Positions 9,455 through 57,600 of a DNA stretch of 64,000 nucleotides are shown here, piece by piece. Position numbers and translations under genes: made by a program. Within the stretch, counting starts at the first letter, position 1. Each line of letters opens with the position of its first letter. Location of the stretch: NCBI RefSeq assembly GCF_004010195.1, contig NC_057718.1, positions 83,988,924-84,052,923 on the forward strand, in the 5' to 3' direction. This stretch comes from Chiloscyllium plagiosum. Its lineage: Eukaryota. The notes under the pieces are model-generated. The model was not told the origin of the DNA and searched no databases. It saw nothing but the letters and a program-made list of their open reading frames with translations.

Positions 9455-10185
9455 AATAAATGCTGAAACAAAAATATAAATTGCTGGAAAAGCTCAGCAG
9501 ATCTGGCAGCACCATCTGTGGGGAGAAATTAGAGTTAATGTTTTGGGGTTAAGTAACCCTTCCTCGGAAAATTTTTTTATGCCGAAGTCAGGCTGGAGGG
9601 AGAGGGTAATGATTAAATGATAGGTGGGGATGGAGCCCAAAGAAAGATAAGAATAGTTGGACGGATAAAGGAATGGTTAACGATCTGGCTATGAGAGTTG
9701 AATAGCTATTAATGGGGACTGTTAGTGGCTAACAATGGGTTATTTATAATCGTTGAAAAGTGTGGTGCTGGAAAAGTCCAGCAGGTCAGGCAGCATTCAA
9801 GGAGCAGGAGAATTGATGTTTTGGGCATAAGCTCTTCATCAAGAATTTCTGATGTAAGGCTTATGCCCAAAATGTCGATTCTCCTGCTCCTCAGATGCTG
9901 CCTGACCTGCTGTGTTCTTCCAGCGCCATACTTTGCTATCTGATCTCCAGCATCTGCAGTCCTCACTTTCTCTGAGTTATGTGTGATAGCAGACTATTGA
10001 TAACAAGACCAGGTATGTGGGGGTTAGGGTAAGGATGTGAGAGCTCAAGCCCTAAAGTTATTGAACTCTTGAGTCCAGAGGGCTGCCGGGTCCCTAAGCG
10101 GTCAATGAGGTGCTGTTCTTCCAGCTTGCGCTGAGCTTTGCTGGAGCACTGCACCAACCTTGCCAATGACATACTCAGCCAATAA
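9455..10185 (-). mobile_element. Penelope-like element 3' end (GIY-YIG C-terminus plus pLTR)
   Basis: Translates SSKAQRKLEEQHLIDRLGTRQPSGL; terminal repeat resembles 40490-40630 and 56570-56800; interrupted by 9752-9971. Confidence 0.75.
9752..9971. mobile_element. palindromic Penelope-derived short element
   Basis: ~85-bp inverted arms plus asymmetric tail ctgatctccagcatctgcagtcctcactttctc; same family as 23517-23727. Confidence 0.8.
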
Positions 10186-10669
10186 ATGGGGAAAAAAACA
10201 CGCCATAACATCTTGCACTAATCAAACCTTTTCTCTGTTGGCCTAATACTTTTTTGTATGACTAAGTATCAGATTCTGTTTAATAACTTTGGCTGTGTTA
10301 TCACATTAAGCATGTTACGGAACTACAAATTATTGAAATGGTCATTTGCGCGACACTATTAATGTCTGTTTTCTAATAATGTATGTTGTGTGAATGAAAA
10401 TGTATGTGGGGTTATTTATTATTGCTAATTTTTCCTTATTGCAACAAATTAATTTACTAACACAAAACTTAATTCCTGTCTCTCTCTCTCTTTTTGATCT
10501 GGAATGAGTTAGTGCTATTTCACTGATAGTTTTGATTTATCCTTTATGCACTTTCTGGTTTATTGTGTTTCATTGCAATCATTTGAGTGAGTGAAAGGTC
10601 TCAGAAGGCCAGTAAGATTGAGATTGTTCAACTGCTGATTGCCCAAGACTTGCACTTACATCAACATGA

Positions 10670-54600: not shown

Positions 54601-57600
54601 ATGCCAAGCACAGGTAGCATTGATGTGAGAAAGCTTTAACTTTGGTTGGCAACATTTAGTGTCACTGCTGCTCTGGTATACGCTAAGTTGTCCCTGATTG
54701 TCTGTCCTACTAAATTGACTCTAATAAAATAGTTTCATCTCTGCAGCTGTGTTGAGAGGTTTCCTCTGAAATGGTTGAACGGGTACCTTCTCAAAGTACC
54801 AGGCTATGAGCAGAGAATGCTAGTGCTTCCAATCTAAAAGTCAAAATAATTGATTATTACCCATTCTCCTTCAGGGAAGAAATACAATAAGTGGGTGAGA
54901 AAATCAACAAAGATTGAACTACTTTCAGACAAGTACAAAACTTCACCTGCAGTGGAAATGTGCTATTTTGATTCAAGATACTGGTAGTTTTAAGTTTTGC
55001 TATCAGGATGGCAGTTAGTTGAAGATGAAATTAAATTGTAAGTTCTGTTGGTTTACCTAAGTTTCTCTTTATGGCTTGAGGTAGTATTTCAATTTATTTG
55101 AAATATTTAAGATTTTACTTGGAAAAGCTTAAAAAGCAGATCTAAGTGAATAATGTAAATACAACCATAAATTTAAAAAAAACTCTCCTGGCTCAGCGTT
55201 AGATTAGTTATCATCCATGAGGGGTATGATCAGTTGCTGTGAAGAGTTCTGCTGACCCAGCCTCCTTCATTTACTGATTTTTGTTTTTAAATTGAGCTGA
55301 ATGCTAAGCCTGCCTAAAGAATTTGAAAATGTTAGCTGGTTCAAGTTCACATAAAACATTAATATGAAGCCAAACTTAAATTCTTTTTGTTTTAGTAATT
55401 GATGTGGCTATGTAATAGGCTGTGAGATTTAATTCAGTTTCTATAAGTACACTTTTACATGAGTCATAATCATTGAGAGAAATAGTTCATATGACGTGAA
55501 CCTTTTCCATGTATTTGCATCTTTTACAATTTTGTTTTCGAATAAACTCTAAAATATAGATTGCAAAGTACTTCTCACGATGCAGTGTTGAATGATTTTA
55601 TTGCACAAATCTATTTTTCAAAATGTTATATATGTGTTTAAATGTTCCTTTCATAGCTAATAAAACCTTATTATAATGGACTTGGAATGCATATTAACTT
55701 CTAGATATGTTAATACCTGAGTTTACAATATTTCAACATTACTCAGAATTTGCCTTATATATTTACCATTTAGGGATGATCTTTGATTATATCATTGTTA
55801 TTCACTGGAAATGTGACTTAAAGGACTTACTTCTAATTGACCTTTCATTTGAATCTTTATAGGCAAAGAAATATAATTACCCACTGAAATCTCCTGGTGT
55901 CCGACCATCTAACCCGAGACATCCAGTGTCAGGCACATTGCGTGGGCATCCTACACCACTACAGCAGGAACCACGGAAAATCAGTTACAGCCGCATTACA
56001 GAGAATGAGACCGAAAGTATAGCATCAGCACCAAATTCCCCACGTACCCCTCTGACGCCACCACCTGCTTCTGCTGCATCCAGCTCGACAGATGTCTGTA
56101 GTGTGTTTGGGGATTCTGATCCAGCCAGTCCGTTCTATTCAAGTATGTCAGTTAATTTCAATAACTGCTTGGTAACAAAATTAATGTTTTGGAAGTGGTT
56201 TCTATTTGTCAAGTAAATGCAAATTTGACTGTTTTATGTTACATTGAAGTCTGTCTGTTTGATTTGCATATTTATAGTTTAATCTTACTGTAAAACTGAA
56301 ATCGAGAGTAAAATTTGAGACCACATTTAAGGTGCATTTATCAGGAAAAATTAACAGCATTTTAAGAGATTTAAAGTATCCAAAAGATTTACTTTACATG
56401 ACAGAAGCAGAGGAAATGTTTTGAAGTGTTGGAAATTGATTTCTCACTTGATATGTTGGTAATTCAATAAGGAAGGAAGTGTTACATGACTTGATGTGGG
56501 GATGAAGTTTGGCAGGTATGCACACAGCAGTTAGAGACCATTGGGAAAATGTCATCAAAATCTAAATAACCAAAGTAGAAATTACTTTGAAAACTCAACC
56601 ATTTGGCAGCATCTTTGGAGAGAAAGCAGAGTTAAAGTTACAGGTCCAGTGACCTTTCTTCAGAACCTTCTTATGTTTTAAAGACAGGTCACTGGACCTG
56701 AAACGTTAATACTACTTTCTCTGCACAGATGCTGCCAGACCTGCTGAGTTTTCTTAGCTTTTGGTTGATTTCCAGCATCTGCAGTTCTTTGTTTTTTTTT
56801 AATCAACATGTAATCATCATCAGTATAAAAACAGGAAGGCTAAGCAAAATCAAAATATGGTCCAGATCAGTTTACTGGAAAGTAGCAAATTTTAGTAATA
56901 AAGAGACTTTGCATTAATTGTATATGAATTATATAGTAGATGATGGGTATTAATTGGGATTTCACTTCTAAATATACAAAGATCTACATGTTGAAACTCT
57001 TGTAGGGTTGAGCTAGGATGCATATGCTTGTAATGTTTTGTTTTCAAATGCATGTAAGATTCAGTAAAGATTGACATCAGCATTCTGGAGTAGAATATTT
57101 GGCTAAATTGAATGGAAACAAGATATAGACAGTAGACCTGTATACATGTACAGAAACGAGCAAGAGTACTAATCAAGCTCTTTAAGTGTGTGAAAAAGTG
57201 AAGTATTGAAATTTAGCAAGTAAAAAAAAGAGATGTATTGAAGACTCATTTTTACTAGGATTCATTTAAAACCTGTCCAAGCTGATTGTGAGACAGTTTT
57301 TTTTTGAAGACCAGTTTTGTGACATATGATCAAGGAGAAAGCATGGGTTTTCACATGCAAGTAATATTTCATTTATTTTTGCCATTAAATCACACCTTTG
57401 GGAGGTGCCAAAGATATACCAATATTGTGTAATATCAGAGCATCTTTCTTGCAATCCACAGGGCAATTGCTATTGTCATTTCAAATGCCACTAAAGTTGT
57501 CTGACTGCAGACTTGCCTCAAAAGAGCTAAACATAAAATGGCATGAACAAATATATCCATCTAGCATCCACTGTTATGATGACAAATATCATTGGGTACT

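Follow-up and report, generated by a model that had tools for sequence, protein, structure and literature searches.

Hairpin insertions in a shark genome as probable minimal insertions of Neptune-type Penelope-like elements

A stretch of 64,000 nucleotides from the genome of the shark Chiloscyllium plagiosum (assembly GCF_004010195.1, contig NC_057718.1, positions 83,988,924 to 84,052,923; hereafter the window, numbered from its first letter) contains five short hairpin insertions with pieces of a hammerhead ribozyme motif at their centres, and raises the question of whether such hairpins are elements in their own right or the products of larger ones. The initial annotation of the window regarded them as non-autonomous elements without an open reading frame (ORF), akin to retrozymes and mobilised in trans. 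We consider it probable that they are instead the shortest insertions of three autonomous, Neptune-type families of Penelope-like elements (PLEs), each likely composed of two separately primed cDNAs, joined head to head, whose synthesis on a sense, uncleaved RNA ran as far as the inferred capped 5' end. The hairpins are tiny insertions and likely to be dead ends.

Hairpins in the window and their parent elements

An inverted-repeat search recovered six long inverted repeats in the window, five of which are the hairpins of the initial annotation, confirmed both in their places and in their division into three sequence families: A (E1, E3), B (E2, E4) and C (E5). The arms are 52-85 nt long and 82-96% complementary (n=5). 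The palindromic symmetry ascribed to the hairpins did not hold: each has, on the two sides of a variable centre, an inverted arm of about 80-95 nt that lacks a tail and a direct arm with an extra tail of 30-40 nt. The features are as follows, with arm positions, here and below, counted from the C of CTGANGA as 0:

9754..9972, plus strand: E1, hairpin of family A; tail-less inverted arm 9757-9837, tailed arm 9856-9972
9457..10157, minus strand: older, 5'-truncated family-C Penelope-like copy, interrupted by E1
19995..20190, plus strand: E2, hairpin of family B; tail-less inverted arm 19995-20071, tailed arm from -7
23517..23727, plus strand: E3, young hairpin of family A; tail-less inverted arm 23517-23601, tailed arm 23607-23727
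23502..23516 (plus strand, left) and 23728-23742 (right): 15-bp target-site duplication (TSD) of E3
23579..23606, minus strand: the sole intact hammerhead core among the ten arms of the window; CTGAAGA, helix II, GAAA, CG, TC
33213..33417, minus strand: E4, hairpin of family B; tail at the low-coordinate end, junction +4/-3
33201-33212 and 33418-33429: 12-bp TSD of E4
39242..40623, plus strand: longer Penelope-like copy of family C; linker and GIY-YIG coding region in decayed form, 3' untranslated region (UTR)
56568..56795, plus strand: E5, old hairpin of family C; tail-less inverted arm 56568-56661, tailed arm 56681-56790

Both arms of E1 stop at -4, the tail-less arm of E2 is cut within the core at +21, and the junction of E3 is -3/+5. 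Clean TSDs are present in two of the five (E3 and E4), the other three being too decayed. E1 is nested in the 3' UTR of the older family-C copy, which retains the end of a GIY-YIG coding region (about 10005-10157, tblastn E 2.5e-06), the 3' UTR and a hammerhead arm (9459-9565), and matches the DNA of family-C parent loci at 70-78% on both sides of E1. The longer copy ends in a tailed hammerhead arm (40509-40623) and is a non-palindromic relative of E5. A weak solo arm of family C (28 bits) lies at 21255-21330 on the minus strand. We looked for a tRNA or SINE (short interspersed nuclear element) head in the window and found none.

In each family, the hairpin arm is the 3' end, i.e. the pseudo-long terminal repeat (pLTR) and the tail, of a PLE from the same genome that encodes a reverse transcriptase (RT) and a GIY-YIG endonuclease. 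A search of the genome for GIY-YIG domains yielded 14,403 candidates, 150 of which were scored, and every arm is the terminal repeat of the parents: the hammerhead, about 55 nt, and the optional tail. In family A, the arm at locus L119 lies 160 nt behind an ORF with the YIDD motif, a Cys linker and the GIY-YIG domain, and at L138 and L305 the tail continues into the ORF's beginning. In family B, the arm is found 400-1255 nt downstream of the endonuclease, on the same strand, in all 25 fetched loci that possess an endonuclease fragment, and L298 retains an RT (RVT_1, E 6e-06, under Pfam's cut-off) together with the Cys linker. Family C is represented by a 2.5-kb copy with remnants of RT, linker and endonuclease (L153), in addition to the two copies with protein-coding remnants inside the window. 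A Cys-rich, zinc-finger-like linker preceding the GIY-YIG domain, visible in the translations of L111, L295/L298 and L153, is a mark of Neptune/Nematis elements (PMC8557442), and points to Neptune-type parents. The presence of protein-coding parents with the same end in each family disagrees with the proposed ORF-less family mobilised in trans, while the accompanying proposal, that the hairpins are pieces of Penelope-like pLTRs with minimal, dimer-type hammerhead motifs, is supported. A check against Rfam found no hammerhead family in the window, nor did a scan of four parent-type loci; the best Rfam matches of the hairpins are models of microRNA hairpins, below the cut-offs. We suggest that such hairpins be annotated as ends of PLEs and not as miniature inverted-repeat transposable elements (MITEs) or microRNA precursors.

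Copy number, junctions and arms

The exact 22-nt motif of the family-A tail occurs 82,938 times in the genome and the exact 33-nt motif of the family-B tail 10,399 times, with no occurrence of the reversed-motif control for either tail. Profile searches of 80 unselected 10-kb stretches (768,769 called bases) revealed 197 arms (103 A, 44 B and 50 C), which, besides 125 unpaired arms, make up 29 short hairpins and 7 inverted pairs of greater length that have TSDs (gap of 106-1183 nt, TSD score of at least 11). This density of about one hairpin per 27 kb extrapolates to about 130,000 in the genome; therefore, the occurrence of five in 64 kb is unremarkable. The sizes of the inserts form a continuum: the same outer ends bound inserts of about 0.15 to 3 kb, and in inserts of 0.3-3.3 kb the two arms extend independently into the 3' UTR and the ORF. 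Perfect TSDs were found in 86 of 166 pairs, 69 of them 12-16 bp long, and TSDs of at least 13 bp surround 25 of the 30 best relatives of E3; they are slightly AT-rich (0.65 vs 0.59).

Do these numbers reflect propagation of the hairpin as a unit, as in the initial annotation, whereby ORF-less palindromic ribozyme elements spread in a retrozyme- or MITE-like manner in trans? The very high copy number speaks for it, as does the recurrence of some junctions hundreds of times and the presence in the genome of small, head-to-tail hammerhead tandems of about 224 bp. On the other hand, no junction is dominant. Among 67 hairpins (39 A, 28 B) chosen irrespective of their centre, the centre junctions are distinct in 34 of the 39 A and in all 28 B hairpins, and the junction of E3 occurs genome-wide in 538 copies with the tail on one side and in 481 copies of the mirror form. 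The inner ends of the two arms are independent and variable, and the junctions frequently cut into the core, with 28 of the 67 hairpins lacking an intact core on either arm and 57 having at most one. No position in the common part differs systematically between tailed and tail-less arms, i.e. there are no arm-specific fixed differences. Moreover, the TATA/initiator region that lies upstream in the parents is absent from the hairpins, structure prediction gives no helix II within the hairpin, and the same ends flank inserts of up to 3 kb. The continuum of sizes, the nearly always new junctions and the equally common mirror forms refute propagation as a unit for the bulk of the hairpins, and we regard it as most improbable.

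Accordingly, none of the known categories of unit-propagating elements (retrozyme, SINE or MITE) is a good match, as the fixed, master-derived internal structure is absent. The hairpins differ from MITEs in the asymmetric tail, the variable 3' end, the TSD of 12-16 bp and the retroelement parents. They share with non-LTR retrozymes (10.64898/2026.07.22.740005) a short, ORF-less, hammerhead-bearing, pLTR-derived sequence; however, the latter are described as head-to-tail tandems of units with complete hammerheads, whereas the five elements of the window are head-to-head, and hairpins in general usually have broken cores.

The relationship between the two arms of one insert bears on how it was made. 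If the origin from a PLE is granted, the second arm could have arisen by fold-back, in which the first cDNA or an antisense template primes itself, a model proposed in 2013 for rotifer elements (PMC3846280). In agreement with fold-back, palindromic centres exist, and the two arms of an element have subfamily variants in common much more often than chance would give (55 of 77, or 0.71, vs 0.15 expected, and 16 of 24, or 0.67, vs 0.20). However, of the 11 family-B loci that have an inverted partner, 9 combine a tail-less long arm with a tailed short arm, and so do L100, L107 and L153. Since each of the two arms holds sequence absent from the other, neither arm was copied from its partner; simple fold-back is therefore excluded for those inserts, in which it is already contradicted, and two priming events fit. 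The equal frequency of the mirror junctions also argues against fold-back, and so does the extra G at the sense 5' end (see below), which points to a capped sense template. Thus, our data speak more for two sense-primed cDNAs than for an antisense template that primes itself, and we find fold-back rather unlikely as the general explanation.

The inner edge and the putative start of the mRNA

The arms stop at a sharp edge, 4 bases (A) or 8 bases (B) before the hammerhead core. Among 202 family-A arms, 64 end at -10 to -1, 53 at 0 to +12, 33 further in and 11 at -99 to -11, the remaining ones being long (26) or cut off (15); the corresponding numbers for 111 family-B arms are 47, 20, 11 and 11, with 21 long and 1 cut off, where all these ends derive from local alignment to 26-28 references, which can shorten the arms of unsampled subfamilies. 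No arm of the 67 hairpins extends beyond -6 (A) or -11 (B), even though their definition permitted about -30. Of the hairpin matches in the whole genome, 8,408 extend to -4 and 974 as far as -7; if spread evenly across the permitted range, about one-seventh of them would stop within those three bases, as compared to the seven-eighths observed.

The spacing of 30 nt between a TATA box and the start, and the consensus of the initiator, are well known from other promoters. Among long family-B copies, 22 of 30 have TATAAA at -38 to -40, with the edge 30 bases behind, so that the A at -8 is the predicted start. In family A, long copies exhibit an initiator-like TCATTC with its A at -4 (exact in 16 of 31) and a T-rich TTTAT at -34 to -37 (20 of 31). 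We therefore propose -4 (A) and -8 (B) as putative start sites. The base that precedes the predicted start is G rather than A by 712 to 226 (A) and 682 to 63 (B) genome-wide, compared with 246 to 228 (A) and 339 to 167 (B) in the control two bases further in, and with a background of 0.61. Counts of the listed rows give about 290 to 40 for family B without the TT-prefixed class and about 128 to 88 for the TAG class of family A alone. L1 and SVA inserts are reported to carry an untemplated G at their 5' ends, left by copying of the cap (PMC3287187), and the extra G at the edge is what the copying of an mRNA cap would leave.

The edge could alternatively be a processed RNA end, or a boundary protected by protein or structure at helix I, with the two cDNAs made as we propose. 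In families A and C, the edge indeed falls on helix I's 5' strand, a canonical TATA box is missing from family A, and Drosophila Penelope is described as starting well upstream, with an intron that ends at helix I (PMC2377424, PMC4209133). Contrary to this possibility, the edge of family B is separated by 5 nt from the 3-bp helix I that follows and by 30 nt from the TATAAA ahead of it, the extra G occurs at the predicted base in two unrelated families, and no AG precedes the edge in the main subfamilies of A and B, for which reason we rejected a splice acceptor as its cause. We judge the processed or protected end to be quite improbable.

Several observations nonetheless weigh against a cap-marked start and against our reading as a whole. 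Besides the missing TATA box of family A, both G/A controls exceed the background, and part of the genome-wide excess may be a G shared with the partner arm. Among 34 family-A junctions inspected locally, there is no clear excess of G (8 G, 5 A, 4 T and 17 C), and 4 of the 8 come from the partner arm. The reads of a species-matched poly(A) run, in which dispersed copies dominate, show no pile-up of starts or ends; overall, two raw RNA runs and one contig set gave no such pile-up, with one run yielding no aligned reads. The edge of family C was derived from few references, and no intact full-length parent was recovered among the examined loci, which contain gaps and stops. The Neptune-type assignment comes from the Cys linker and not from a tree. 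Finally, the sharing of subfamily variants between arms does not separate one template RNA from two.

With these reservations, the origin of the hairpins from two separately primed cDNAs could be envisaged as follows. The GIY-YIG endonuclease would nick both strands about 14-15 bp apart, and each nicked 3' end would prime reverse transcription at one of two internal sites 30-40 nt apart, corresponding to the start and the end of the tail, as observed in vitro for an anole element. If priming occurs on the 5' repeat of the transcript, the cDNA would reach the transcription start after 85-125 nt and run off there, in some cases with the cap copied as the extra G, while priming on the 3' repeat could give a long cDNA. 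Two short cDNAs joined by a microhomology of 0-3 nt, often after trimming, would form a hairpin, and one short and one long cDNA would form the classic insertion with an inverted pLTR. The hammerhead would be under selection in the parents, with helix I at or near the first transcribed base, and a mere passenger in the hairpins. It is tempting to go one step further, and we lean slightly towards regarding the approximately 130,000 hairpins as an in vivo record of PLE insertion by a dimeric enzyme, with the ribozyme acting as a switch that removes the cap at the start of the mRNA. If this is true, the ribozyme would cut about 32-36 nt from the cap, the retrotransposition template would not be its product, and inverted pLTRs could be explained without the model of antisense self-priming.

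The hammerhead motif and comparison with known systems

The core CTGANGA-A-stem-GAAA-(CG|GC)-TH, postulated for the centres of all five hairpins, stands at the level of families, with 259 intact cores among 671 arms, but is intact in a single one of the ten arms of the window. There the bare motif does not exceed chance (15 matches vs 9.8 +/- 5.3, with 19 of 100 shuffles reaching 15). The palindromes ACGT and AGCT reported for the helix-III remnant are real and derive from the commonest states of the A/helix-III/UH positions, A-CG-TC (96) and A-GC-TA (77). The stem does not change completely between families, as had been claimed: the outer G-C pairs are common to them, and within A the variation sits in the loop. 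The family-C stem, given as AGGTC..GACCT, is usually GGGTC..GACCT. All features of a minimal type-I hammerhead (CUGANGA, bulged base, helix II, GAAA, palindromic helix-III remnant, UH and helix I) are present in the family consensus and in parent-type copies.

The expected covariation was found for helices I and II across the parent subfamilies: in 12 hand-picked A and C copies 86.5% of the cells are paired, with 13 two-sided changes, none of 500 shuffles matching and slid controls giving at most 51%, although the rows are related and decayed and hence weak as statistics. A covariance model built from A and C gives family B scores of only 9-13 bits; it found no significant family-B cores and missed E2 and E4, with 11 of its 21 weakest matches falling on such cores. 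Family B is predicted to fold into the same shape. As to the predicted conservation over the flanks, a modest excess was found for the GAAA box (0.99, 0.99, 0.94 vs 0.95 in 115 A arms; 0.98, 1, 1 vs 0.95 in 58 B arms), whereas the comparison of the whole core with the flanks (0.96 vs 0.93) is biased, because the arms were chosen for reaching the core. Covariation together with the slightly better kept GAAA box is consistent with selection on the hammerhead in the parents.

In the hairpins themselves, helix II is predicted to form in a single arm (0.94-1.0 at 4 loci) but not in the folded E3 hairpin (P = 0.0), and because the cores lie on opposite strands, no same-sense dimer is supplied. The arms contain the uncut ribozyme. 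At the predicted cut site 229 arms start, compared to 121 four bases downstream, an at most two-fold excess largely explained by microhomology, as 20 inspected cases are mostly microhomology junctions or internal deletions. In L342 and L326, the core is deleted between short homologies, with the 5' side joined directly to the sequence past the cut site, possibly by skips of the polymerase across the folded ribozyme. Some TSD-flanked insertions contain young repeats in which 2-3 units of about 224 bp, each composed of hammerhead arm, tail and the beginning of the ORF, follow one another head to tail, at these places:

L111, 795-1430: head-to-tail tandem of about 224 bp
L308, L309, L311 and L312: further such tandems
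Additional loci: spacings of 205-224 bp

They have the appearance of template jumps repeated at the RNA's 5' end, and these same-sense tandems, rather than the hairpins, are candidates for dimer cleavage and for retrozyme-like units.

Both the layout of the insertions and the ribozyme motif are already known; the copy number in this genome is unusually large. PLEs with an endonuclease are described as having an inverted, 5'-truncated pLTR, a tail of 30-40 bp at one end and a TSD (PMC3846280, PMC8557442), and the head-to-head repeat, one-armed tail, TSD and partial tandems of these published units recur here. Unlike in those units, paired forms are here most commonly minimal and ORF-free, and the TSDs are 12-16 bp long instead of 8-10. 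A TATA box and an initiator have been noted in the pLTR of rotifer Pen2a (same sources). The type-I core, the unpaired base before helix II, the G10.1-C11.1 pair, the palindromic 15.2-16.2, the many families per genome and the opposite-strand pairs 100-700 bp apart are all shared with the pLTR hammerheads of metazoan PLEs (PMC4209133), the available text of which includes no cartilaginous fish and does not describe a ribozyme at the first bases of the mRNA. For Poseidon of Anolis carolinensis, both strands were nicked and extended in vitro, two internal RT starts delimit the tail, the protein is predicted to be a dimer, and uncleaved RNA is the template (PMC11167929), in agreement with the uncut ribozyme of our arms. 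It differs in its clade and in its AT-rich targets, compared to only slightly AT-rich TSDs here, and run-off at a capped end and head-to-head joining are not reported in the accessible part of that paper.

How inverted PLE ends form, which strand is copied, and what the hammerhead does are open questions in the papers cited here. The value of the hairpins lies in the dataset, i.e. in a record of how PLEs insert and not in a new self-spreading ribozyme element, and their junctions provide base-level predictions: starts at -4 and -8, copying of the cap, and two independent primers. What appears to be new is the sharp edge before the core, the extra G and, by inference from them, the placement of the hammerhead right where the mRNA begins; a literature search, with most subscription papers and Repbase outside its coverage, revealed no description of a cap-marked edge at a hammerhead.

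A few minor observations should be added. The tails of families A, B and C (e.g. 23692-23727 of the window) end in a branch-point-like, pyrimidine-rich sequence with AG in some subfamilies, and as sequences they resemble a splice acceptor just before the ORF start; pLTRs of PLEs are known to hold introns. In the sixth inverted repeat (24405-24612), a (TTAGA)n run is flanked by two facing ends of a different abundant repeat, of which the window holds about ten more pieces, and we presume that this repeat represents 3' ends of a SINE or of a CR1/L2-type long interspersed nuclear element. The frames at 2653-3993 on the minus strand resemble, we assume, the endonuclease and linker of an L1/Tx1-type non-LTR element. 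A proline-rich open frame at 60821-61336 on the plus strand, for which a PDB sequence search came back blank, presumably resembles the C-terminal region of SOS1; if this identification is right, the hairpins may lie in introns of the SOS1 gene.

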